32,000 bases of DNA, from positions 3,660,001 through 3,692,000 of the forward strand of contig NC_003272.1 in NCBI RefSeq assembly GCF_000009705.1. Reading direction: 5' to 3'. The notes beneath the pieces were generated by a model. It was not told the origin of the DNA, ran no database searches, and worked only from the letters and a program-made list of their open reading frames with translations. The DNA is from Nostoc sp. PCC 7120 = FACHB-418. GTDB lineage: Bacteria; Cyanobacteriota; Cyanobacteriia; Cyanobacteriales; Nostocaceae. Below, piece after piece: positions 1,774-19,207 of this stretch (within the stretch, counting starts at the first letter, position 1; every line of letters starts with the position of its first letter). The position numbers were made by a program, and so were the translations under genes.

Positions 1774-2766
1774 ATGAATGCAGAAATCTCCACAGCGTGG
1801 GATAAGGTTCAAAGCATGATCAACGGTTTCATTGCTTTGCTACCCAATATGGCCTTAGCGTTGATTGTCTTTCTAATATTTTTGTTTGTTGCTAGCAGAA
1901 TTAAGGCACTAGTCAAGCGATTAACTCGCAATCGTCGTTCTGCACGGAATCTGGGATTAGTGTTAGGAAGATTAGCGCAAGGTGTAACAATTTTGATTGG
2001 GTTGTTTATCGCCCTTTCCATTGTGATCCCCACATTTAGAGCAGGTGATTTGGTGCAACTGTTGGGAATTAGTGGTGTTGCCATTGGTTTTGCCTTCCGC
2101 GATATTCTGCAAAACTTCCTCTCTGGGATTTTAATTCTGCTAACTGAACCTTTTCAAATCGATGACCAAATTGTATTTAAAGGCTTTGAGGGGACTGTAG
2201 AGAATATCGAGACACGGGCAACGACAATTAGAACTTATGACGGTCGGCGGATTGTTATTCCTAACTCTGAGTTATTTACTAATTCGGTAACTGTTAACAC
2301 TGCCTTTGATAGCCGTAGATTAGAGTACGATGTCGGTATTGGCTATGGCGATGACATGGATCTAGCCAAGCATTTGATGTTAAATGCAGTTCTTAGCATA
2401 GATGAAGTTTTAAAAGATCCTGCGCCTGATGTACTGGCAATGGAACTTGCCGAAAGTACGGTCAATATTCGTGTGCGTTGGTGGATTAAACCACCACGCA
2501 GGGCAGATGATTTATCTTCGCGGGATAAGGTAATCTCTGCAATTAAGAAAACGCTTGTTGCTAACGGTATTGATTTACCCTTCCCAACACAACAAATTCT
2601 ATTTCACGACCAAACCGAAGAGACAGATGGAAACCGCTCCCGTCAGCGTGAAGGTTGGCCAGCCGGGAAAAGCGAAGTACCAAAGCCTCGCCGTGTCAGT
2701 GATTCGCTCAGGTTACTTGCTCAAGCGCGCGCCTCACAAGATGGTAACGGCAAAGTAGATTCTTAA
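1774..2766 (+). CDS. Mechanosensitive ion channel, MscS family
   Basis: 330 aa with N-terminal hydrophobic helices followed by the conserved MscS pore and beta-domain block (GVAIGFAFRDILQNFLSGILILLTEPFQIDD...RIVIPNSELFTNSVTVNT). AGGA lies upstream of the ATG. Confidence 0.9.
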   Translation: MNAEISTAWDKVQSMINGFIALLPNMALALIVFLIFLFVASRIKALVKRLTRNRRSARNLGLVLGRLAQGVTILIGLFIALSIVIPTFRAGDLVQLLGISGVAIGFAFRDILQNFLSGILILLTEPFQIDDQIVFKGFEGTVENIETRATTIRTYDGRRIVIPNSELFTNSVTVNTAFDSRRLEYDVGIGYGDDMDLAKHLMLNAVLSIDEVLKDPAPDVLAMELAESTVNIRVRWWIKPPRRADDLSSRDKVISAIKKTLVANGIDLPFPTQQILFHDQTEETDGNRSRQREGWPAGKSEVPKPRRVSDSLRLLAQARASQDGNGKVDS

Positions 2767-2919: not shown

Positions 2920-3127
2920 GAAGCCGGCGCACCCTGCGGCAATACGGTTCGGATAAGCAAGGGAAGCAGAGGAGGTAGGGGAGGAAAGAAGTTTATTTTC
3001 ATAATTTTTCTCTTCCCCTGCTTCTCTTCTCCCCTTACTTCCCCTGCCTGTCTTAACCAAGAAATCCCTTAACCGAACCGTATTGCACTCTGCGAGAACT
3101 CCTAAAGGCGAAGCCGTAGGCTTCTGA
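2920..3127. repeat. Long imperfect palindrome, MITE-like intergenic element
   Basis: The outer arms are cagaagcc...gcaatacggttcgg (2920-2952) and ccgaaccgtattgc...ggcttctg (3073-3127). The inner arms are gggaagcagagg and cccctgcttctc, around an AT-rich centre. Confidence 0.5.
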
Positions 3128-3269
3128 ATTGTTAATGGTTCATACCAGCAGTTATGGCGGTAGTAGCTACTGCTTTAGCTTTCACCATGCTGAAGATGAC
3201 CGTACAGACAAGGTAGAAATTGATTATTGGTGGGTTTAAACTGGTGGAGTTTTTTGGATTCGTGTCACA

Positions 3270-3788
3270 TCAATGGCGACTGTAATGTGTCAGTATCCAC
3301 AAAGCACACCGTTCCAAAATTACGAGCGCAGCGACAATGCCAACTGCCAAACCAAATAAAACTAGATTGTTTTCATTACCTGCCTTGAGAGCAAAACTTA
3401 ATGAAGTGGCGACGGCGGGTGGATGAACGACATCTAAAAATATCATCAGAACAATTGTTAAAATCATGGCAATTCCAGCTGATAAATACCCAGGCCCTAA
3501 AGTCAAATAAATCAATAAGCCAATTATCGCTGCGAACATTTGAGAGATAATAAGTGTCCTTACTGTATTGGTTCCGTGTTGTGGATCTAAGTAAATCAGA
3601 AAAGAACTGGAAGCAAGAGAAGCAAATAAAAGTCGCTGACGACTAAGCACTTCAACCAATGCTAGCACCGTCAAGATCACCAGCGTTGGCATTGAGGCTA
3701 AAGCAAATTCACCCTTTAAAGTTAATCTACGCCTTTTGCGGTTATTTCCGGGCTTGATAGATTCTAATTCTTTATTTTCGTTCTTCAT
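3270..3788 (-). CDS. HPP family membrane protein
   Basis: 172 aa with about 4 hydrophobic helices and the diagnostic HPP motif (LDVVHPPAVATS). Confidence 0.75.
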   Translation of the reverse strand: MKNENKELESIKPGNNRKRRRLTLKGEFALASMPTLVILTVLALVEVLSRQRLLFASLASSSFLIYLDPQHGTNTVRTLIISQMFAAIIGLLIYLTLGPGYLSAGIAMILTIVLMIFLDVVHPPAVATSLSFALKAGNENNLVLFGLAVGIVAALVILERCALWILTHYSRH

Positions 3789-3956
3789 TCCTCCTTTTTC
3801 TCCTTCCTCATTAGATGTTTCTTAGGATAATCTAATGTTTATCTCTTGACTTCTGTCACTTGACTAACTTCAAAAGTCAGTGTGAATGCTTGACCCATTT
3901 CTTTAGAGGGAAATGCTTCTCAAGACCATTGCTACTTCCACAATCATCATGTCGGT

Positions 3957-4418
3957 TCAAAATACATTTATCCGTCCATCATTGAGTATATAGAGAGAGC
4001 GATGACCTTCGGTCGGTTGGAGACCATTGCCTGGGTAACGCCAAGTAGGGTGAAATTCTACACGTAGAGTGCCAAAGTTTGGTTTAGAAACAACAGCTTG
4101 TAATGGCGCTCCCGTTTCATCCCAAAAAACCAGAGAAAGATTCGGTTGGGAATCTTCCTGTTGGGGAAATTGCAGTTTTTGTTGAGGTTGTAGGTGAATG
4201 GGAGGCGCACCTTGGACTCTTTCTAGTTCGACTAAATTTGATGTCTTATTGATAATTTCTAAGCGAATCCGTTGCCCTGGTGTAAACTGTAGCGGTCGTG
4301 AGCCACATTTAGAAGCACAAGTTCCGGCTAATGTGGTGCTGGGATGGTCTATCGATACCACTAAAACAGTAGCTGCAACCAAGGCAAAAGGCAGTTTCTT
4401 AAACATACTATCCAGCAT
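3957..4418 (-). CDS. Hypothetical secreted protein
   Basis: 153-aa ORF with a signal-peptide-like N-terminus (KKLPFALVAATVLVVS). No recognisable domain. The start may be the second Met, at 4406. Confidence 0.55.
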   Translation of the reverse strand: MLDSMFKKLPFALVAATVLVVSIDHPSTTLAGTCASKCGSRPLQFTPGQRIRLEIINKTSNLVELERVQGAPPIHLQPQQKLQFPQQEDSQPNLSLVFWDETGAPLQAVVSKPNFGTLRVEFHPTWRYPGNGLQPTEGHRSLYILNDGRINVF

Positions 4419-4541
4419 AAATAATTTTGGGTGGCGATCGCCGCGTCAATTTAATAAATTTTCGGCGTTCAGCGACAATACTTATGCAGAATAGTAGCCT
4501 AGTGGAGTGCTATCCAACCTCAGCAAATATCCAGAATTTAC

Positions 4542-5036
4542 TTAAATCATCTCAAACTCTAATTGATGACTTTTGAGAAAATCATGGGTGAAATGATCAA
4601 CCACATTAGTATCAGCAAGTTCTAAATTATAAAAATCTACAACCTCATGGTCAAAATATGGACCGGCGTGCCAAGTCCCCTGATTTAATTTAATAAAACA
4701 ATTCCCTGGAATGCGGAAAGCTGCAATCTCTTCTAACATCGGTATATCTGCATCATTGTGAGGAGGACAAACCGCGATTAACCAATCCTTACCTGCTAGA
4801 GAACCTAAACATTGAGTGCATTGGAGATGGCGAGTAATTTTATGAAACTTCCGACCCCGTTTTTGCAGTTGCATAATATAAAAGCGGGGTGTACCATTCT
4901 GCAAATTTAATTGTGCATCTTCGGCATCAAAAGCTTTATCATCTGAACTAGGAAAAATTACTTGTCCATAACGCGAAAAATTCTCTGATGTTATCCACTC
5001 TACTGTTAATGTTTGGACGGTTTGTGATGTATTCAT
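4542..5036 (-). CDS. Ureidoglycolate lyase (AllA)-like cupin protein
   Basis: 164 aa. FSRYGQVI, ITRHLQCTQCLGSLAGKDWLIAV and GTWHAGPYF align by eye to the AllA blocks F..YGDVI, LERHPLGTQAFIPM and NVWHHPLF. Confidence 0.65.
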   Translation of the reverse strand: MNTSQTVQTLTVEWITSENFSRYGQVIFPSSDDKAFDAEDAQLNLQNGTPRFYIMQLQKRGRKFHKITRHLQCTQCLGSLAGKDWLIAVCPPHNDADIPMLEEIAAFRIPGNCFIKLNQGTWHAGPYFDHEVVDFYNLELADTNVVDHFTHDFLKSHQLEFEMI

Positions 5037-5173
5037 AGAATATTCATGGTAATTGGTAATTGATAATAATTGGAAGCTGATTTAATGTTGTTGGCATAGC
5101 CTACACCGATACAGAAAAAATTAAGATACCCATTGCCCACTACAATCATGGTAAGGTATATTGGACTCCCAAC

Positions 5174-5668
5174 TTATGTAAGTTTAATTAATTCTTTACT
5201 CATTTTGATAACAGGAACTATTACTCCTTTACTCAATTGGTGGGGAGATTTTTCTATAGCATGGAATCCTAAGCGTAAATAAAATCCTTCAGCATAAAGA
5301 CTAGCAGTTGTGATGACTTTATCAACTTTTTGCTGAGTTGCTTGATGAAAAAAATGTTCTACTAAGGCTCGGCCATTTCCTCTACCTTGATAATGAGGAT
5401 GTACATATAAGGCAATTAATTCATCAACAATATAACTAGTAAATCCGACAATGTTATTGCCCTCAACTGCAACCCAGAATGTTTCTGATTTCATCCTTTT
5501 GAGAATATGAGAACCGTCTGGTTTAGACAAATGATTACGCCAAGCTAACAATTCTTGTCGGGTGTAAAAAGTTGCAGGTAGAGCTTTGATAGCAGCAATA
5601 TGAACTGCACTCAGTACCCACGCATCTTGTTTTTCAGCAGGTCTCAAAAATATTCCATTGGCATTCAT
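5174..5668 (-). CDS. GNAT family N-acetyltransferase
   Basis: 164 aa with the acetyl-CoA binding motif YVHPHYQGRGNGRALVEH. Confidence 0.85.
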   Translation of the reverse strand: MNANGIFLRPAEKQDAWVLSAVHIAAIKALPATFYTRQELLAWRNHLSKPDGSHILKRMKSETFWVAVEGNNIVGFTSYIVDELIALYVHPHYQGRGNGRALVEHFFHQATQQKVDKVITTASLYAEGFYLRLGFHAIEKSPHQLSKGVIVPVIKMSKELIKLT

Positions 5669-5741
5669 ACAAAAATTTTACAGTTGAGAGATTACTGCTG
5701 GGACAAGGAGTTGTGTGATCTCACGTTCTAATGTCAGGATA

Positions 5742-6017
5742 TCAAGTTTCTTGAGCCGTGTTTTGCTTTTGGTTAATTATTTGGGCAAATTGTCGTCTGG
5801 TTTCCGGTAAATTTTGACTAGCGGCTTGGACACGCGCCAAAACATCCGCAGGAGTGCTTGGAGGAGAACCGCTATTAATAAGGAGGCTGGGGATTGTATT
5901 TGATTTGTAGTTGAATTTATTGAGCGATCGCCTCTCCAAATCATTGCTTGTAATGAGATTACGGTCAATGACTACCCGTTCTTTCACTACATCCACGGAA
6001 TGGGCAGCAATGATCAT
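5742..6017 (-). CDS. Hypothetical protein
   Basis: 91-aa ORF with no confident family match. An in-frame stop lies 9 nt upstream of the ATG. Confidence 0.3.
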   Translation of the reverse strand: MIIAAHSVDVVKERVVIDRNLITSNDLERRSLNKFNYKSNTIPSLLINSGSPPSTPADVLARVQAASQNLPETRRQFAQIINQKQNTAQET

Positions 6018-6132
6018 TCTTTCTCATCTCTGCTCATCTGTCCACATAGCAAATTCTCACAAAATTAGCAGATTTACCTCTCCTATTGCGCTGTAAACTA
6101 CTTTTACAGGAGTTTAATAGGTAAAAGCAGCC

Positions 6133-6687
6133 TTGGAAAAATTGTTGAAAATATCGAGAATAATTGATGCCTTTACAGAACGCATAGGTCGATATACCAG
6201 TTGGTTGGTGTTAGTCATGGTCATACTAGGCGTGTGGAATGTTGTCGGGCGATATTTAGGCCGCATTAGCGGTAACAACCTCACATCCAACGCTTATATA
6301 GAAGCTCAATGGTATATTTTTGATGTAATTTTCTTCTTAGGGGCTGCTTATACCCTGAAGCATAATGAACACGTCCGCGTTGATATTTTTTATAGTAATT
6401 GGCAACGTCGGCGTAAAGCGATCGCCGACTTTCTCGGAACCATATTTTTTCTCATTCCTTTCAGCATCATAGTGATTTTTGTTTCTTGGGAAACCATTGT
6501 CGCATCATGGCAGATTGGTGAATTATCACCCGATCCAGGTGGGTTGCCCCGCTACCCCATTAAAGCCATGATTATCGTTGGCTTTGTGTTGTTAATTATT
6601 CAAGGAATTTCCCAAGCAATTAAAAATTTAGCAATTATCCAAGGCAGACTAGAACCCCAGGAGGAAAATCATGACACTGGCTTATGA
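6133..6687 (+). CDS. dctQ: TRAP transporter small permease subunit (DctQ family)
   Basis: 184 aa with 4 hydrophobic helices and a TTG start. It overlaps the downstream large permease by 17 nt, as is typical for dctQM. Confidence 0.85.
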   Translation: MEKLLKISRIIDAFTERIGRYTSWLVLVMVILGVWNVVGRYLGRISGNNLTSNAYIEAQWYIFDVIFFLGAAYTLKHNEHVRVDIFYSNWQRRRKAIADFLGTIFFLIPFSIIVIFVSWETIVASWQIGELSPDPGGLPRYPIKAMIIVGFVLLIIQGISQAIKNLAIIQGRLEPQEENHDTGL

Positions 6688-8008
6688 ATGGTTGGGGCCA
6701 GTGATGTTTGCTGGTGCTTTAGTTCTATTATCTTCAGGCTACCCAGTAGCTTTTTCTTTGGGTGGAGTAGCGATTTTATTTGGATTGTTGGGAATTGGTT
6801 TAGGTGTCTTTGACCCTATATTCCTCACAGCCATGCCACAGCGTATTTTCGGCATTATGGCTAATTATACCCTGTTAGCAATCCCTTATTTTATTTTTAT
6901 GGGGGCAATGTTAGAAAAATCTGGCATTGCCGAAAGACTCCTAGAAACAATGGGTATTTTGTTAGGACGCTTGCGTGGTGGACTTGCTTTAGCCGTTGTC
7001 TTAGTAGGCGCATTATTAGCTGCAACCACTGGTGTAGTAGCAGCCACAGTGGTGGCAATGGGTTTGATTTCTCTACCGATTATGCTGCGCTATGGATACA
7101 ACAAAGAATTAGCCACTGGTGTGATTGCTGCATCGGGAACCTTGGGACAAATTATCCCGCCGAGTGTGGTGTTAGTTGTATTAGGTGATCAATTGGGTAT
7201 ATCGGTAGGAGACTTGTTCATTGGTTCCGTGATTCCAGGTTTGATGATGGCAAGTGCTTTTGCCCTTCATGTATTAATTGTGGCTTTCATCAGACCGGAT
7301 GTAGCTCCAGCCTTACCTGCCCAAGTGAGAGAAATCGGTGGTAAAGCCTTGGGAAAAAGGGTGATACAGGTGATGATACCGCCTTTGATACTGATTTTAT
7401 TAGTATTGGGGAGTATCTTTTTTGGCTTTGCTACACCAACAGAAGCAGGTGCAGTAGGTTGTGCTGGGGCGATCGCTCTTGCGGCTGCTAATGGTCAATT
7501 CACTTTAGAATCATTACGCCAAGTCTGCGATACTACCTTACGCATCACTAGTATGGTAGTTTTTATCCTCATTGGCTCCACTGCATTTAGTTTAGTGTTC
7601 CGGGGATTGAACGGCGATCAATTCATGTTCGATGTCCTAGCCAATCTCCCTGGTGGTAAAATCGGCTTTTTGTTTGTCAGCATGACGACAGTATTTCTTT
7701 TGGGCTTTTTCATCGATTTTTTCGAGATTGCCTTTATTGTCATACCTTTATTTGTTCCAGTTGCCCAAAAATTAGGCATTGACTTAGTTTGGTACGGTGT
7801 GATTTTAGGCGCAAATTTGCAAACATCCTTTCTCACACCACCCTTTGGCTTTGCCTTATTTTATTTACGAGGTGTAGCACCACCAGAAGTCACCACATCA
7901 GATATTTATCGCGGTGTCATACCCTTTATTCTCTTGCAACTTTTAGTCCTGCTGTTAATCATTATTTTCCCCGGAATTGTCAGTTTCCTACCATCTTTGG
8001 GAAGTTAA
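6671..8008 (+). CDS. dctM: TRAP transporter large permease subunit (DctM family)
   Basis: 445-aa polytopic membrane protein with DctM-type blocks (IPYFIFMGAMLEKSGIAERL, ASGTLGQIIPPS, LGANLQTSFLTPPFGFALFYL). Confidence 0.92.
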   Translation: MTLAYEWLGPVMFAGALVLLSSGYPVAFSLGGVAILFGLLGIGLGVFDPIFLTAMPQRIFGIMANYTLLAIPYFIFMGAMLEKSGIAERLLETMGILLGRLRGGLALAVVLVGALLAATTGVVAATVVAMGLISLPIMLRYGYNKELATGVIAASGTLGQIIPPSVVLVVLGDQLGISVGDLFIGSVIPGLMMASAFALHVLIVAFIRPDVAPALPAQVREIGGKALGKRVIQVMIPPLILILLVLGSIFFGFATPTEAGAVGCAGAIALAAANGQFTLESLRQVCDTTLRITSMVVFILIGSTAFSLVFRGLNGDQFMFDVLANLPGGKIGFLFVSMTTVFLLGFFIDFFEIAFIVIPLFVPVAQKLGIDLVWYGVILGANLQTSFLTPPFGFALFYLRGVAPPEVTTSDIYRGVIPFILLQLLVLLLIIIFPGIVSFLPSLGS

Positions 8009-13117: not shown

Positions 13118-14503
13118 CTAAATCAGAAACCGGATTAACACATACAATGCTGAGGCAATTAGTTGTAATATTGTGACTGGAATACCATAGTGAAGAAAAG
13201 TTTTAAAAGAAATCCGTCGTCCGTGCTGTTCGGAAATTCCCGCCGCTACGATGTTAGACGATGCACCAACTAACGTACCATTCCCGCCTAAGGTTGCACC
13301 AAACATCATGGCGTAAAACAATGGTAAAACTTCTGGGGGAAATTGTCCTTGAAAGTCGCGTGCTAAGACTTCTGCGGGTGCTAATCCTACAGTGACAAGG
13401 TATTGCTTGAGCAGGGGAACCATCGCCACTACCAAGGGAATATTAGGTACGACACTCGATAAAATTCCTACAAGAAACAACAACACCAGAGAACCCAAGA
13501 TAATATTTTTTCCTAAAATAGCTGCCAATATCCCTGATAGACCACCAATTACGCCTGTTTTTTCTAATCCTCCAATCAGCACAAAAATACTCATAAAAAA
13601 TATTAATGTACTCCAGTCTACATCGCGCAAAATATTGTTGACTGTATCAATTTTGCTATGGTGAGATAGTAGTAAAGCCAAAGCTGCGCCTAACAGAGCC
13701 ACAGCCGCCGGGGAAATCGGTATTGGCAGGGATTCTCCAATCACAAAAAATAGCAGGACAAAAGCGACAATTACTGCACCCAGACTCAAAACCCGTGGAT
13801 GATTAATTTCTGGGTGTGGTAATTCTTCCAGATTCTCTAATTTTGTATGCCAAATTTTGCGGAATAAAAATGGCAAAGTGAGAGTTACCACAGCGACTGC
13901 AATGACACCACCTAAACTCAGTTTCCATAGATAATCTATAAAACTTATATTGACAGCATCACCTACAATAAATGTTGCTGGGTCACCTACTAATGTCAGC
14001 AATCCAGCACTATTGGCAATCAAAACCATCAATATCAATAAAGGTACAAAATTTATCCCTATTTCTTGTGCCATTGGTGGAATTAGTGGCGCTAACAACA
14101 TCACTGTTGTTGCATTTGGTAAAACTGCACAAATAGGAGTAACAATAGCAACAATACCGAGTAAAAGACGCTTACCATCGCCTTTAGCTAATATCACTAT
14201 TTGGGTTGCCAAATAATCAAATATCTTAGTAGGCTCAAATGCTCTAACTAAAACCATTACACCAAAAAATAATCCCAGTGTGCCATAACTATTACCAATG
14301 TAAGCAACAGCTTCCTGTAAAGTCATCACATTAGTAAATACTAATAATAATGCTCCTAATAAGGCTGCAATAGTCAAATGCACCCATTCCGTCATAACTA
14401 GAAAGATGACACTGATAAATACGATGACACTTAGGAGTGCTTGCCAGTTTTCCACGCCTACCTCTTGTAGCTTATATTGTTGCGTAATAGCGAAAAAAGT
14501 CAC
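13118..14503 (-). CDS. ArsB/NhaD-superfamily (CitMHS/SLC13-like) ion permease
   Basis: 461-aa polytopic membrane protein with blocks typical of this superfamily (LLTLVGDPATFIVG, GGNGTLVGASSNIV). The GTG start at 14503 lies inside a hairpin. An alternative GTG at 14455 is preceded by AGAGG. Confidence 0.75.
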   Translation of the reverse strand: MTFFAITQQYKLQEVGVENWQALLSVIVFISVIFLVMTEWVHLTIAALLGALLLVFTNVMTLQEAVAYIGNSYGTLGLFFGVMVLVRAFEPTKIFDYLATQIVILAKGDGKRLLLGIVAIVTPICAVLPNATTVMLLAPLIPPMAQEIGINFVPLLILMVLIANSAGLLTLVGDPATFIVGDAVNISFIDYLWKLSLGGVIAVAVVTLTLPFLFRKIWHTKLENLEELPHPEINHPRVLSLGAVIVAFVLLFFVIGESLPIPISPAAVALLGAALALLLSHHSKIDTVNNILRDVDWSTLIFFMSIFVLIGGLEKTGVIGGLSGILAAILGKNIILGSLVLLFLVGILSSVVPNIPLVVAMVPLLKQYLVTVGLAPAEVLARDFQGQFPPEVLPLFYAMMFGATLGGNGTLVGASSNIVAAGISEQHGRRISFKTFLHYGIPVTILQLIASALYVLIRFLI

Positions 14504-14524
14504 CTAAAATATGGTGACTTTTTT
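14493..14524 (-). terminator. Hairpin plus U-run between the USP-like gene and the permease gene
   Basis: The minus strand reads aaaaaagtcacc-atatttta-ggtgactttttt. The GC core is only 6 bp, so this is a weak terminator or attenuator candidate. Confidence 0.4.
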
Positions 14525-14570
14525 CTGTATTTTCATTTAGATAAATAACTTCTGAAAGTCGGGGTCAGAA

Positions 14571-15275
14571 TTATTCATCTATACATTCAGGAATCCCTAA
14601 GACAGCACAGGGGAAATTATAACCTAAGGTTTCAATGAGAGGATGATAAACAGATTTACAACCCAAAAATAAGATATCAGCAGCTTCAAATTCTGCAACT
14701 TTTCTCAACTCTGTACTTACACAACCGAAGCGTAGATGAGATTTGAATGAACCTTGCCATTCTTCAGCCAAAGTTCTTGCCTGCCAAATAATTCTATCTG
14801 CTTCTTGCAGTGGTGTTAGTGTGTCTGTTTGAAGATATGATTTAATTCCTGTCAGTTTCGGTTGAGTAATTACAGATGTGCTGGATTTTTTTGTTTCACT
14901 TGGCGGCAATTCTATTGTCGGCAAGCGTTTAGCAAAGCTTAAAATATTAGAACGATTTTTTGTGTTGCTATCTTCTACTACATAAACAGCTTGCACAGTG
15001 ACTTGTTGATTAGTCGCCAACCTTGTTTGATGGGCAATCCAACAGGCTATATCTAGTGCTGTATGGCTGTTAGGAGAAGCGTCATAACCAACAATTAAGT
15101 TGATTGATTGTGTTGTTTGACCTTTTTGGGGTTCTGGTAATAAAACCATTTGGTCAATTAAATCATCACGACCCATAGCACTTTGCAGGCGTGCTAACAT
15201 TGGCTTAATTTTCACAGCTTTAACTTCTCCTAAACTTAACGAACACATCAACGAGAAGCAGGGTAAAACGGACAT
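14571..15275 (-). CDS. Universal stress protein (UspA)-like protein
   Basis: 234-aa ORF. INLIVGYDASPNSHTALDIA and ADILFLGCKS...CAVLGIP resemble the first strand and C-terminal blocks of USP domains. No canonical G-2x-G-9x-G(S/T) ATP motif was seen. The start is uncertain: 15275 ATG, 15215 GTG after AGGAG, or 15200 ATG. Confidence 0.6.
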   Translation of the reverse strand: MSVLPCFSLMCSLSLGEVKAVKIKPMLARLQSAMGRDDLIDQMVLLPEPQKGQTTQSINLIVGYDASPNSHTALDIACWIAHQTRLATNQQVTVQAVYVVEDSNTKNRSNILSFAKRLPTIELPPSETKKSSTSVITQPKLTGIKSYLQTDTLTPLQEADRIIWQARTLAEEWQGSFKSHLRFGCVSTELRKVAEFEAADILFLGCKSVYHPLIETLGYNFPCAVLGIPECIDE

Positions 15276-15330
15276 TCATATCCGTAAGGAAACCCCAATA
15301 ACAACTGGTATCAAAGCCAAAGTCTTGGGG

Positions 15331-15540
15331 GTTCCTTCCATTGCCGACGGAGTTAGCTGACGGGCTAAGACTGGAAGGTGTCTCTCTTTAAGAGTGCGGA
15401 GTAATGAGTAATGAGTGCTGAGTTTAATACTTGGTTACTCTTGACTGTTTACTCTAGGTTAGCTACTCTCTGCAAGATGCGCCCCATAACATGGTTCCTC
15501 CGTTCCAAATGATTGCAAACTTAATTTGAATTAGGCTACC
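15331..15540 (-). promoter_or_regulatory. c-di-AMP riboswitch-like leader (ydaO-yuaA class), copy B
   Basis: The minus strand reads UUCAAAU-loop-AUUUGGA ACGGAGGAACCA UGUUA UGGGGCGCAUCU ... CCUUCCA GUCUUAGCCCGUCAGCUAACUCCGUCGGCAA UGGAAGG. The blocks ACGGAGGAACC, UGGGG..AUC and CCCGNCAGCUAAC.CCG..GGCAAU match the ydaO aptamer as I remember it. It is paralogous to copy A. Confidence 0.7.
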
Positions 15541-15563
15541 CACTAAAGAGATAATAGACTACT

Positions 15564-16424
15564 TTACTCTTCTTGAGCAAAATATTTGTCGAGAAAGTTT
15601 AAGGCATGATTACGAAGTTCAAAGTATGCTTTTGAGTTACGTATAGCAGACCTGTCGCGTGGATGAGAAAATGGTACTTCTAATATTTCTCCAATGTTTG
15701 CGGCTGGGCCATTTGTCATTAATACGATGCGATGGGCTACGCCCCGCCGTAGGCGATCGCTCATATAAATTGCCTCATCGACATCATGGGTAATCATCAT
15801 TACTGCTTGGCGATTATTTTCCCAGATATCTAATACTTGTCTTTGTAATTTACCTCTAGTTAAATCATCTAATGCGCCAAAAGGTTCATCCATTAACAGC
15901 ATTTTTGGACGAATGGCTAAGGCTCTGGCACTCCCTACTCTTTGTTTCATACCTCCAGAGATTTCATCAGGATATTTATCTGCTGCCGGGGTCAAGTTTA
16001 CCATTGCCAAGTGTTTGTTCACAATGCCAATTTTTTCTGCTCCATTAGCATTTTTTAACACTTCATCAACTGCTAGACGGATATTTTTCTTCACTGTTAA
16101 CCACGGTAAGAGGGAATAATTTTGAAATACCATCATTCTTTCCGCACCTGGCTTGTGAATTTCTTTACCGTCAAGCCTGACTGAGCCAGAAGTGCTTTTT
16201 TCTAAGCCCGCCACAATTTTTAATAAAGTGGATTTGCCGCATCCAGAATGTCCAATTACAGAAATAAATTCGTTTTCAATAATAGTTAAATTCACCCCAT
16301 CTAAAACAACAAAGTTACTTTTATCTGGTGTTAGATAAGACCTAACTAAATTCTCAATTTCTAAAAAATTAGTGCGCGGTATAGCTTTGTCATGAGCATC
16401 TATTGTTGATGGTGTATATTTCAT
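15564..16424 (-). CDS. ABC transporter ATP-binding protein, NitT/TauT (NrtD/CmpD/SsuB-like) family
   Basis: 286 aa with Walker A GHSGCGKST, signature ISGGMKQR, Walker B LLMDEPFGALD and H-loop ITHD. AGGAG lies 8 nt upstream of the ATG. Confidence 0.9.
   Translation of the reverse strand: MKYTPSTIDAHDKAIPRTNFLEIENLVRSYLTPDKSNFVVLDGVNLTIIENEFISVIGHSGCGKSTLLKIVAGLEKSTSGSVRLDGKEIHKPGAERMMVFQNYSLLPWLTVKKNIRLAVDEVLKNANGAEKIGIVNKHLAMVNLTPAADKYPDEISGGMKQRVGSARALAIRPKMLLMDEPFGALDDLTRGKLQRQVLDIWENNRQAVMMITHDVDEAIYMSDRLRRGVAHRIVLMTNGPAANIGEILEVPFSHPRDRSAIRNSKAYFELRNHALNFLDKYFAQEE
15729..15752. repeat. 24-nt in-frame palindromic mini-insertion (small-dispersed-repeat-like) inside the ABC ATPase gene
   Basis: The coding strand reads GATCGC|CTACGGCGGGGCGTAGCCCATCGC|ATC. 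This adds LRRGVAHR between the normally contiguous SDR and IV(L/M)MTNGP. It is flanked by direct ATCGC and has a near-palindromic core (GCCTACG...CGTAGCC). Confidence 0.5.
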
Positions 16425-16480
16425 ATCAAATGCTCCTAAAAGTTTTTAACTATGTATCAATAAAAATCAAAATTCCCAGT

Positions 16481-17180
16481 TCAAGACATGAAAAAACGAG
16501 TAGGAGCGTTAGCCCTAATTGCAGAACTATTTAAATACCCAACAGGGTTACTGGGGTCAAAACCTTTCTTATCTATAAAATACTTCTGGTGGTTCAACCT
16601 TGTAATCATCCGGGGAACATTGAATCCCCATTTCGGCAGCTATCTGGCGATATTGTTCATGGTCATGGCGTTACCGTGACGATAGATTGTTATGGCTGCA
16701 CATAGGGGAGAGAGGAGCGTGCTATGCGGGCGTTGATGACTGCACCAGATACGATAAGCGCAGCATCAAGACGACCATAAATTAAGCCGTCGCAGGAGGT
16801 AGCCCAACTGGCTTCGCGGTTGAGTTGGACGTTTAAGCCATACTTGCGAAAGAAGCCTTTTTCCAGGCGATCGCAAATGGCGCACAATCATTTATGGGAA
16901 AGTATCCGACAATCAAATCGGGTTTTTCTAAATCGCTGGATTTGATTACTGGTTTGATGGCTAGGGCTTCTTGGGTTAGGCCTTGGGCAACTAACGCTTC
17001 TGGTGGAGTGGGCATTAATTCATGATTTGCCAGGGTAATAACCCACCACAACAAGATAATTCCTAAGAATCCCAAGGCAGGAAGTACGACTACATCCCTC
17101 ATCAAAATTGGTTTTGCTGTTTTCCATGCAGATTGAGTCGCAACAGCTGCAATCGCTGCTAAATTTAATTGAAATATCAT
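16481..17180 (-). pseudogene. Decayed NitT/TauT ABC transporter genes: a permease N-terminal fragment fused to frameshifted, internally deleted NrtA/CmpA-like binding-protein fragments
   Basis: Three minus-strand frames each carry pieces. The first is a permease-like N-terminus (ILMRDVVVLPALGFLGIILLWWVI...LMPTPPEAL). It runs directly into a binding-protein block (LEKPDLIVGYFPINDCAPFAIAWKK). After a frameshift comes GFFRKYGLNVQLNREASWATSCDGLIYGRLDAA. The last pieces are C-terminal fragments EQYRQIAAEMGIQCSPDDYKVEPPEVF and FIDKKGFDPSNPVGYLNSSAI. Only about 700 bp remain where more than 2 kb would be expected. Confidence 0.75.
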
Positions 17181-17280
17181 TGTGCCACCCCAACAGAGTT
17201 AAGTGCAGGTACGAAAACATGAGCAGTACCAGCCTTGGACACTGACGAGAGCAAAACATTTATCAAATGCTGTCTCTTCA

Positions 17281-17490
17281 GTCTCCTCTCAATGCCTACG
17301 AAGTTAGCTGACGGGCTAGGGCTGAGAGATGCCCCTCTCTGGCGAGTGCTGAGTAATGAGTTCTGAGTTCAGTATTTAGCTAGATTTAATGTTTAACTCT
17401 TGACTCTTTAGTTGACACTCTCTGTGAGATACGCCCCACAAATTGGTTCCTCCGCTCCAACCTTAAATACTATGGTGGGTTGGATTAGGC
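17281..17490 (-). promoter_or_regulatory. c-di-AMP riboswitch-like leader (ydaO-yuaA class), copy A
   Basis: The minus strand reads UCCAACC-loop-GGUUGGA GCGGAGGAACCA AUUUG UGGGGCGUAUCU ... AGAGGGGC AU CUCUCA GCCCUAGCCCGUCAGCUAACUUCGUAGGCAU UGAGAG GAG. These match the hallmark ydaO blocks (GAGCGGgGGAaCCA, UGGGGuGAAUC, CCCGnCAGCUAACcUCGUAaGC) as I remember them. It lies about 100 nt upstream of the ORF at 17180. Confidence 0.8.
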
Positions 17491-17634
17491 TGACTTACTC
17501 GAATAGATAATAATAAACCTTACAGTAACATCTTTTTTACAGAAAAACAATCCCCAATTTGTAAATGTTGTTGACATCATTACAAACAGGTAACTGATTA
17601 TGGAAGTTTTCCGTAATTAATAACCGCAATTGAT

Positions 17635-17780
17635 ATAAGTTATTCTGCTTTAAAGTTGCACAATCCATTGTGAGGGCTGTTGACTGTTGACCGTCAACGG
17701 TCAAAACAATTCGCAATTGCGAATTGTTAGGTCAATAGCCCTTATTAGTAGTTATGCAATTTAGGCGCGCTTTAACTTAG
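17635..17780. mobile_element. Palindromic MITE-like element, copy 1 (family shared with 28742-28863)
   Basis: About 146 bp that folds into one long hairpin. Terminal repeats are taagtta/taactta and inner arms are gggctgttgactgttgac.../...gtcaatagccc. A perfect 24-nt palindrome, aacaattcgcaattgcgaattgtt, is nested at the centre. Confidence 0.6.
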
Positions 17781-18016: not shown

Positions 18017-19207
18017 ATGGAATTTAGTCAAGTACTGGCTGACAATACTAACATCATCATCGCCAAATGGGTTGTGGCAGTGCGTGAGGATAGACAGATA
18101 GAAAGCGCTGATGATTTATCATACACAGCCATTAAAAACCATATTCCTGATGTTTTTAAGGCAATGGTCACAGTACTTTCACAATCCCAAGAGAGTGATA
18201 TTAAATCCATTGTGACGGCCAGTTGGCAGCACGGATTACTACGGGCTGAACAGGGTTTTGATCCGTCAGAAATTGCCCGCGAATATAGACTATTAAGGAA
18301 AGTTGTATTTGATACTATAGAAGTTGATTTATTACAGAGAACACCCGGCGAAATTATTCGTTCTATGCGTTTAATTGATGCGGTGATTGATGAAGCGATC
18401 GCCAGATGTTTTCATAGTTATGTTGGTGAACGCTTGCGGGAATTAGAACATTTGCAATCTTCTTTGACGCTTCATAATGAAGAACTAACACGTTTAGTCA
18501 CTAGCAACGAAGATAAACTATCACAACTAGCCCACGAACTTAAACACCCACTCACGGCGATTATTGGTTATTCAGATTTATTTTTACGACAACAAAGGCG
18601 AGAAATTACAAGAATAGATAACACGGTCAACATAGAACATATTGAGCGCGTATTACGCAATGGCAGACATTTATTGCGGTTAATTAATAATGTCCTAGAA
18701 CTGTCACGATATGAAGCCGGTAAAATTCAGTTGCAACCGGCACCAATTCATATTCGAGACTTAATTAACAATGTTTGTGAGATGCTAGAACCTTTAGCGG
18801 CGGAGAAGAATTTAGCAATTTTAATTAACTGGGTACAAGCACCTAGTGAAATAATTACAGATGGTTTTCAATTACAACAAATTATTACCAATCTTGTGAG
18901 TAATGCAATTCGCTATACAGAGTCAGGCAACATTAGTATAGTCTGTGAAGCAATAGATGATCAAAAGTGGGCGATCGCTGTCTCTGATACAGGAATTGGC
19001 ATTGCCGAAAAAGACCAAACTAAGATATTTGAACCTTATTTTCGCGTTAGTTCTAAAGACCGTCCCTACCTTCCTGACAGTACAGGCTTAGGTTTAGCAA
19101 TCGTTTCGCGGTTAGTGAAGCTATTGCAAGGTGAAATTAACTTAGTCTCCAAAGAAGGGTTGGGTTCCACATTCACTGTGACTTTACCTTTAAAAGTAAA
19201 AACTTGA
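18017..19207 (+). CDS. Cytoplasmic sensor histidine kinase (HisKA + HATPase_c) with an RsbRD-N-like N-terminal domain
   Basis: 396 aa with H-box ELKHPLTAIIGYSDLF, N-box LVSNAIRYT, G1 DTGIGI and G2 GLGLAIV. No TM segment and no adjacent response regulator. Confidence 0.9.
   Translation: MEFSQVLADNTNIIIAKWVVAVREDRQIESADDLSYTAIKNHIPDVFKAMVTVLSQSQESDIKSIVTASWQHGLLRAEQGFDPSEIAREYRLLRKVVFDTIEVDLLQRTPGEIIRSMRLIDAVIDEAIARCFHSYVGERLRELEHLQSSLTLHNEELTRLVTSNEDKLSQLAHELKHPLTAIIGYSDLFLRQQRREITRIDNTVNIEHIERVLRNGRHLLRLINNVLELSRYEAGKIQLQPAPIHIRDLINNVCEMLEPLAAEKNLAILINWVQAPSEIITDGFQLQQIITNLVSNAIRYTESGNISIVCEAIDDQKWAIAVSDTGIGIAEKDQTKIFEPYFRVSSKDRPYLPDSTGLGLAIVSRLVKLLQGEINLVSKEGLGSTFTVTLPLKVKT

Follow-up and report, generated by a model that had tools for sequence, protein, structure and literature searches.

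The closest described relatives of the leader reported here are the c-di-AMP riboswitches preceding ydaO/kimA and yuaA/ktrA in B. subtilis (RF00379; 4QK8, 4QLM, 4W90). The Bacillus examples use intrinsic terminators. For cyanobacteria, c-di-AMP riboswitch regulons have been linked to osmoprotectant transport and synthesis (Nelson et al. 2013, as cited in PMC5986932 and PMC4284465), and the verified cyanobacterial members to osmolyte and ion transport (PMC10117731, PMC5986932). In Synechocystis sp. PCC 6803, a verified c-di-AMP riboswitch lies upstream of slr0753, a gene for a putative chloride exporter (PMC10117731). A further point of reference are the NrtABCD (nitrate) and CmpABCD (bicarbonate) importers, as the permease and ATPase orthologous to those of our locus pass the models TIGR01183 and TIGR01184. 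Unlike in these systems, the genes here run in the order permease, binding protein, ATPase, the one ATPase lacks an NrtC-type regulatory domain, and the importer operon is headed by a c-di-AMP riboswitch.

We scanned the window, i.e. the whole analysed stretch of 32,000 nt, against Rfam 15 at gathering thresholds and obtained two matches, both to RF00379. The first of these, termed aptamer 1, covers the full model (positions 1-134) with E=1.2e-13 for the whole window. It scores 66.9 bits, the gathering score being 38; permissive filters gave the same result, and a permissive Rfam scan of 15200-17620 returned no family besides RF00379. An earlier note, made by eye, had proposed a ydaO-class leader at 17281-17490 and asked for a covariance-model check. 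The check was passed decisively and the proposed element is real, only that the match is slightly longer than assumed (Table 1). All sequence blocks named at that time were recovered in the claimed order on the minus strand of 17100-17700, namely UCCAACC...GGUUGGA, GCGGAGGAACCA and UGGGGCGUAUCU, then, past a long stretch of variable sequence, AGAGGGGC and CCCGUCAGCUAACUUCGUAGGCAU, together with CUCUCA/UGAGAG.

With the Bacillus leaders, aptamer 1 shares the junction blocks GGAACC, GGGG and CCCGUCAGCUAAC, the P1 helix, the loop-to-tail pseudoknot and, judged by its orthologs, the location in the 5' leader of transport genes. It differs from them by two inserts, one of 20 nt in the first hairpin and one of 84 nt in the variable stem, the latter with tandem heptamers. 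Among orthologs, the pairs of the first hairpin (UCCAACC/GGUUGGA) vary in a compensatory manner (AACC/GGUU, AGCG/CGCU, AGUG/CACU and AGCC/GGCU), and every aptamer column that is invariant in 37 Nostocales orthologs is unaltered in the window. CUCUCA and UGAGAG had been taken for a stem enclosing the 3' block; they are instead the two strands of the family's pseudoknot, in which the hairpin-loop CUCUCA pairs with the UGAGAG tail after P1. Loop and tail co-vary between two aptamer classes (CUCUCA:UGAGAG versus CUUCCA:UGGAAG), as seen in about 120 aptamers. Given this match in sequence and structure, the aptamer 1 RNA would still bind c-di-AMP, presumably two molecules of it.

The 84-nt insert is built partly of the heptamers (period 7, 3.9 copies according to TRF) and folds as an imperfect long hairpin. 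Among orthologs of aptamer 1, the variable-stem insert ranges from about 8 to more than 150 nt. Similar tandem heptamers occur in the variable stem of the second aptamer (15399-15416) and in the spacer upstream of aptamer 1 (17677-17691), and their number and kind differ among relatives, both in variable stems and in the spacers after aptamer 2. This variation in the stems explains the aptamer length range of about 115 to 280 nt.

Table 1. Features of the leader, the decayed operon and the downstream unit, with coordinates in the window
Feature	Position	Strand	Basis or remark
Candidate -10 box TATTAT	17507..17512	-	predicted; conserved 5' flank GAGUAAGUCAGCC lies about 7 nt downstream
c-di-AMP riboswitch aptamer 1 (RF00379)	17278..17501	-	cmscan, 66.9 bits (gathering score 38)
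Tandem heptamers forming the 3' arm of the expanded variable stem (RNA-strand unit AGAACUC-like)	17344..17370	-	TRF
Pseudoknot 5' strand CUCUCA, loop of the GGGGC...GCCC hairpin	17323..17328	-	loop/tail covariation
Pseudoknot 3' strand UGAGAG, directly after P1	17286..17291	-	covariation and sequence
Hairpin HP-A (GGAGACUGAAGAG...CUCGUCAGUGUCC)	17237..17285	-	RNAalifold; 4 pairs with compensatory changes
Hairpin HP-B (GGUAC, U-rich loop, GUACC)	17208..17230	-	RNAalifold consensus
Shine-Dalgarno region UGGGGU (UGAGGU in most orthologs)	17187..17192	-	alignment; 7-9 nt before the ATG at 17180
NrtB-like permease remnant, codons 1-65 of about 283	16986..17180	-	tblastn
Chimeric 115-codon ORF	16833..17180	-	permease N-terminus, in-frame binding-protein residues 35-81, out-of-frame tail
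NrtA/CmpA-like binding-protein remnants	16483..16988	-	tblastn; blastn against the closest related locus (L001)
NrtD-like ABC ATPase ORF, 286 codons, open with lesions	15564..16424	-	scores above the cut-offs of Pfam ABC_tran and TIGR01184
Insertion of 24 nt with a palindrome (CTACGGCGGGGCGTAGCCCATCGC) at a GCGATCGC (HIP1) site	15729..15752	-	in the ATPase gene
Second RF00379 aptamer (aptamer 2)	15327..15547	-	cmscan, 51.0 bits, E 3.4e-9
Universal stress protein gene (Usp), intact	14571-15275	-	Pfam, NCBIfam, synteny
CitMHS/ArsB-superfamily permease gene, intact	13118-14503	-	Pfam, NCBIfam, synteny

Using the ATPase as query and one genome per species, we found 80 cyanobacterial loci at 71-87% identity, among them Nostoc, Calothrix, Tolypothrix, Anabaena, Microcoleus, Oscillatoria, Chroococcidiopsis and Leptolyngbya. 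In the closest one (L001), an RF00379 aptamer (3084-3364) is followed by genes for a permease of 283, a binding protein of 480 and an ATPase of 278 residues, and then by a second RF00379 aptamer (6870-7118), Usp and the CitMHS permease. Among 23 loci searched with Rfam, the aptamer lies directly upstream of the permease in all 21 with sufficient contig (55-82 bits); two loci (L063 and L072) gave no aptamer match, and their contigs end within or just downstream of the permease gene. Aptamer 1 is orthologous to these aptamers preceding intact operons. A simple pattern for the 3' block detects the first aptamer in about 75 of the 80 loci, which belong to several orders; there the leader is followed by intact genes for permease, binding protein and ATPase. 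The orthologous permease scores above the cut-off of the NCBIfam nitrate-permease model, and the orthologous binding protein is homologous to the C-terminal domains of NrtC/CmpC (E 6e-63), to NrtA (2G29) and to CmpA (2I48), with no NCBIfam model matching it. A NitT/TauT transporter had been considered an atypical context for this riboswitch class. With the same importer behind the leader in about 75 of 80 loci, this view does not hold, and the predicted NrtB/NrtD-like NitT/TauT ABC importer is the normal cargo of the leader across cyanobacterial orders.

In the window, the situation behind the leader is different. The permease remnant is 88% identical to the permease of L001 over residues 1-66 (tblastn). 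A deletion of 854 nt with its junction at ~16987/16988 has removed permease codons 66-283, the spacer and binding-protein codons 1-34. Of the binding protein, codons 35-150 remain in three frames and about 425-480 in two, codons 151-424 being lost through a second deletion of 822 nt at about 16653; one of the fragments carries the NMT1_2 signature of Pfam. In total, comparison with L001 shows two deletions and three or more frameshifts in the permease and binding-protein genes. The chimeric ORF is probably a by-product of the 854-nt deletion. It has one predicted membrane helix, stands behind an intact ribosome-binding site and is called as a gene in some assemblies, with nothing to suggest a function. 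The earlier description of the first downstream genes as fragments, a permease N-terminus and a frameshifted binding protein, is borne out by tblastn and blastn, and comparison with the intact orthologous loci confirms that the leader heads a decayed operon. No complete three-gene importer that could serve as functional cargo is left behind the leader.

The exact ATPase protein is present on 20 public contigs. The same decayed structure was found in three isolate assemblies and two metagenomes, with 1-2 differences per 6.9 kb; since these five assemblies share it, the decay is not an assembly artefact and is fixed in the lineage. A metagenome scan for a closer relative with an intact operon returned nothing above 82% identity.

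As to the third gene of the operon, the ATPase had been called intact. Its ORF is indeed open and has a good ribosome-binding site, but the gene carries several lesions. The 24-nt insertion (internal palindrome CTACG...CGTAG) is in frame, and the eight residues it adds, LRRGVAHR, separate the H-loop helix from the strand that follows; the insertion is present in five assemblies of the same species and in none of the 80 genome orthologs. In addition, I165S and A187D affect columns that are invariant in the other 80 sequences. A relative-rate count, with L001 as the sister lineage and the remaining Nostocales serving as outgroup, gave a ratio of window-derived to L001-derived amino-acid changes of 13:5 for the ATPase, compared with 28:47 for three neighbouring intact genes (Fisher p=0.009) and 26:3 for the pseudogene fragments. 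Of the nucleotide columns that do not vary among 37-38 orthologs, 1.65% are altered in the ATPase, 1.7% in intact genes and 5.2% in pseudogene fragments; with codon positions 1 and 2 only, 7 of 381 invariant columns are altered in the ATPase versus 9 of 1247 in the controls. Our reading of these figures is that the ATPase is likely under partial or recent relaxation, rather than intact.

We also asked whether the 24-nt insertion is a dispersed mini-element; a search of the window and of 85 loci revealed no further copy. We assume that this insertion and the one in the ATPase gene of L031 (see below) may be very small mobile repeats of the kind found in Nostoc genomes.

The leader has fared better than the genes behind it. 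In an alignment of leaders from 38 Nostocales, 127 columns are invariant in all others, and the window deviates at one of them (0.8%). Here an A in the 3' strand of HP-A has become G, as is also the case in other orders. At the rate of the pseudogene fragments (17 of 325 invariant columns), about 6.6 changes would be expected. The difference of 1/127 versus 17/325 is significant (Fisher p=0.03), albeit from small counts, and agrees with the earlier impression that the aptamer is better preserved than its cargo. For comparison, 23 of 1368 invariant columns are altered in intact genes (37-38 Nostocales orthologs), none of 116 in aptamer 2, and the leaders of intact operons have 0-3 private changes each. 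Within the limits of small counts and a target of ~330 nt, the test favours a retained function of the leader, which evolves like functional sequence and is probably still functional.

A second case of decay was met in L031 (Nostoc sp. S5 bin 2, 3774-6861), where the same operon has been damaged independently. The permease has a premature stop, and binding-protein residues 195-446 are deleted (0.75 kb). The ATPase ORF is open, with the Walker A glycine changed to arginine and an eight-residue insertion of its own; the 24-nt insertion responsible differs in sequence and site from that in the window. Both aptamers of this locus score normally (67.9 and 53.6 bits). The decay apparently is recent. 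That L031 has decayed too indicates that the operon is dispensable and has been lost more than once. Since a recently decayed locus keeps its aptamer, a simple lag can also yield an intact leader.

The platform between aptamer 1 and the start codon (~110 nt) is conserved across orders. An RNAalifold consensus of 35 orthologs from several orders predicts two hairpins, HP-A and HP-B. HP-A is the MFE structure in every sequence folded; the CATTT-GAT-AAATG hairpin described before is real, but merely the tip of this conserved helix of ~20 bp. The pairs of HP-B are nearly invariant, with G-U changes only. Terminator search and folding found no stem with a U tract directly 3' in the platform, i.e. 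no canonical terminator, in accordance with the failure of the first inspection to find a convincing one. The only match on this strand, at 17244-17224, was rejected as a terminator: it has a weak 7-bp stem with the U run 5-6 nt off, and it overlaps HP-A and HP-B and competes with both. Unlike its Bacillus counterparts, the leader in the window thus combines a platform of ~110 nt with two hairpins, no canonical terminator and a dead cargo.

Upstream of aptamer 1, the candidate -10 box would imply a transcription start near 17499-17500, and orthologs have hexamers of the TAGTAT/TATATT type equally far from the invariant UUAGAGUAAGUCAGCC block. Some public assemblies annotate a 59-codon ORF ahead of aptamer 1 (17537-17716, minus strand). 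Without a family match and situated in a spacer of low conservation, it probably is no gene. Farther upstream, a histidine kinase gene (18017-19207) is oriented divergently. In Nostoc favosum (L004), a match to the Rfam whalefall-1 sRNA sits between the histidine kinase gene and aptamer 1 (2398-2458, minus strand), barely above threshold (39.3 bits, gathering score 37); no such match was seen in the window.

How the platform would translate ligand binding into an output was approached by folding. Blocking the pseudoknot strand left HP-A and the accessibility of the ribosome-binding site unaltered, and no alternative platform structure that depended consistently on the ligand emerged. A long-range helix ("anti-P1") that would pair the 5' flank GAGUAAGUCAGCC with GGCUGGUACUGCUC in the platform is strong in the MFE structure of L004; it is inconsistent across orthologs, has no clear compensatory changes and was not adopted. 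An anti-SD pairing of CUCAUCAG with CUGUUGAG would be plausible on paper; both sides are nearly invariant. A small upstream ORF in the platform was discarded, as its AUG is not conserved and indels are not multiples of three, and no other known RNA motif was found in the platform (no extra Rfam match at E<=1). Because there is no canonical terminator and the ribosome-binding site lies near conserved structure, we favour, with low confidence, an output that acts on translation or mRNA stability over classical intrinsic termination.

The second aptamer, 1.95 kb downstream of the first, had not been mentioned before. It begins 17 nt past the ATPase stop codon (20-40 nt in Nostocales relatives), its position is conserved in the Nostocales, and most of them have a second aptamer after the ATPase. 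Its pseudoknot reads CUUCCA:UGGAAG. A conserved A/T-rich, -10-like element (TAGATTAT / TATTAT) is located between the ATPase stop and the aptamer. A long hairpin (GGAAGGAACCCCCAA...UUGGGGUUUCCUU), the 5' strand of which overlaps the tail of aptamer 2, may serve as the switching element of this aptamer. The cargo consists of the Usp and CitMHS genes (13118..15275, minus strand); beyond CitMHS, genes for a coiled-coil protein and an OmpA-domain protein follow on the same strand. Like the slr0753 riboswitch of Synechocystis, which governs an ion/anion permease, aptamer 2 leads a permease; the ancestral cargo of aptamer 1, on the other hand, is an ABC importer. We presume that the CitMHS/ArsB-superfamily permease belongs to the same broad class as the slr0753 permease. 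Outside the Nostocales (Oscillatoria, Chroococcidiopsis and others), the CitMHS gene is found upstream of the ABC operon with an aptamer of its own (L064, also L051, L058, L061 and L071). In L064, three RF00379 aptamers lie on one strand before CitMHS, the ABC operon and Usp (8-169, 1762-1938 and 5346-5472). The region is a small cluster of up to three riboswitch-led units, CitMHS permease, ABC importer and Usp.

Taken as a whole, i.e. covering jointly the riboswitch identity, the decay of the cargo, the kept leader and its inferred action, it seems to us quite probable that 17278-17501 on the minus strand is the orthologous, structurally intact c-di-AMP riboswitch of a Nostocales cyanobacterium. 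In relatives, aptamer, pseudoknot, platform and ribosome-binding site lead the permease/binding-protein/ATPase operon. In this species, the 854-nt and 822-nt deletions together with the frameshifts (at least three) have inactivated the operon, the ATPase ORF surviving with its insertion and accelerated change, and the leader has kept the conservation level of functional leaders. Binding of c-di-AMP would stabilise the pseudoknot and P1. If the leader acts like the characterised members of its family, high c-di-AMP would then lower the expression of the downstream sequence, here the ATPase and the chimeric ORF, perhaps along with read-through to the unit of aptamer 2.

That the RF00379 match is a chance resemblance, or the operon decay an assembly artefact, is extremely improbable. 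Apart from general caution towards a proposal made by eye, nothing speaks for it; it is refuted by the E value (E=1e-13) and the full-length model match, by orthologs at the same syntenic position, and by deletions, frameshifts and the ATPase insertion being common to five independent assemblies. A more serious question is whether the leader is a non-functional relic, useless since the death of the operon, yet short and still unhit by mutation. Its cargo cannot encode a transporter, so that any regulatory output would be without obvious benefit, the ATPase shows signs of relaxation, and the freshly decayed operon of L031 retains its aptamer. Moreover, a leader of ~330 nt is a small mutational target that may persist by chance. 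At least five disabling indel events have occurred in the original ~2.3 kb, from which fewer than one would be expected in the leader, and the lack of indels there is therefore uninformative. The substitutions point the other way: at columns invariant in Nostocales orthologs, the leader is altered far less often than the pseudogene fragments, and in this respect it cannot be told apart from aptamer 2 or the leaders of intact operons. On this evidence we regard a relic as possible, though rather unlikely.

If the leader is functional, as we prefer to assume, the roles that remain besides that of a relic are regulation of the ATPase and chimeric ORF, or gating of read-through to Usp-CitMHS. The latter would follow from a single long transcription unit, in which aptamer 1 and its promoter control the flow into aptamer 2 and Usp-CitMHS, with two aptamers in series. 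The short distance between the ATPase stop and aptamer 2, in the window as well as in Nostocales relatives, would fit such a unit, no terminator-like site was found between the aptamers on the minus strand, and it would account for the keeping of both the leader and the open ATPase frame. However, the -10-like element before aptamer 2 (TAGATTAT / TATTAT) suggests a promoter of its own, and in other orders the units are arranged differently (aptamer-CitMHS, aptamer-ABC, aptamer-Usp) and have one aptamer apiece, suggesting independent units; we therefore deem a long unit unlikely. Doubtful, too, is a broader proposal by which selection would keep the leader for a cargo-independent role, be it serial gating of Usp-CitMHS or a stand-alone c-di-AMP-binding RNA. 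If true, the two-hairpin platform without a terminator would represent an undescribed output mechanism for this riboswitch class.

The current understanding of the c-di-AMP riboswitch family is unchanged by these findings: the standard model detects the leader without difficulty, and a known family is met in its usual cyanobacterial context. Aptamer 1 is an ordinary member of this family in an unusual evolutionary state. The interest is modest and lies in the orphaned, conserved leader, in the cluster of riboswitch-led units and in the platform without a terminator. The two independent decays, in the window and in L031, amount to a natural experiment on the time for which a riboswitch persists after the loss of its genes, and the conserved terminator-less platform provides a concrete target for elucidating the mode of action of cyanobacterial c-di-AMP riboswitches.
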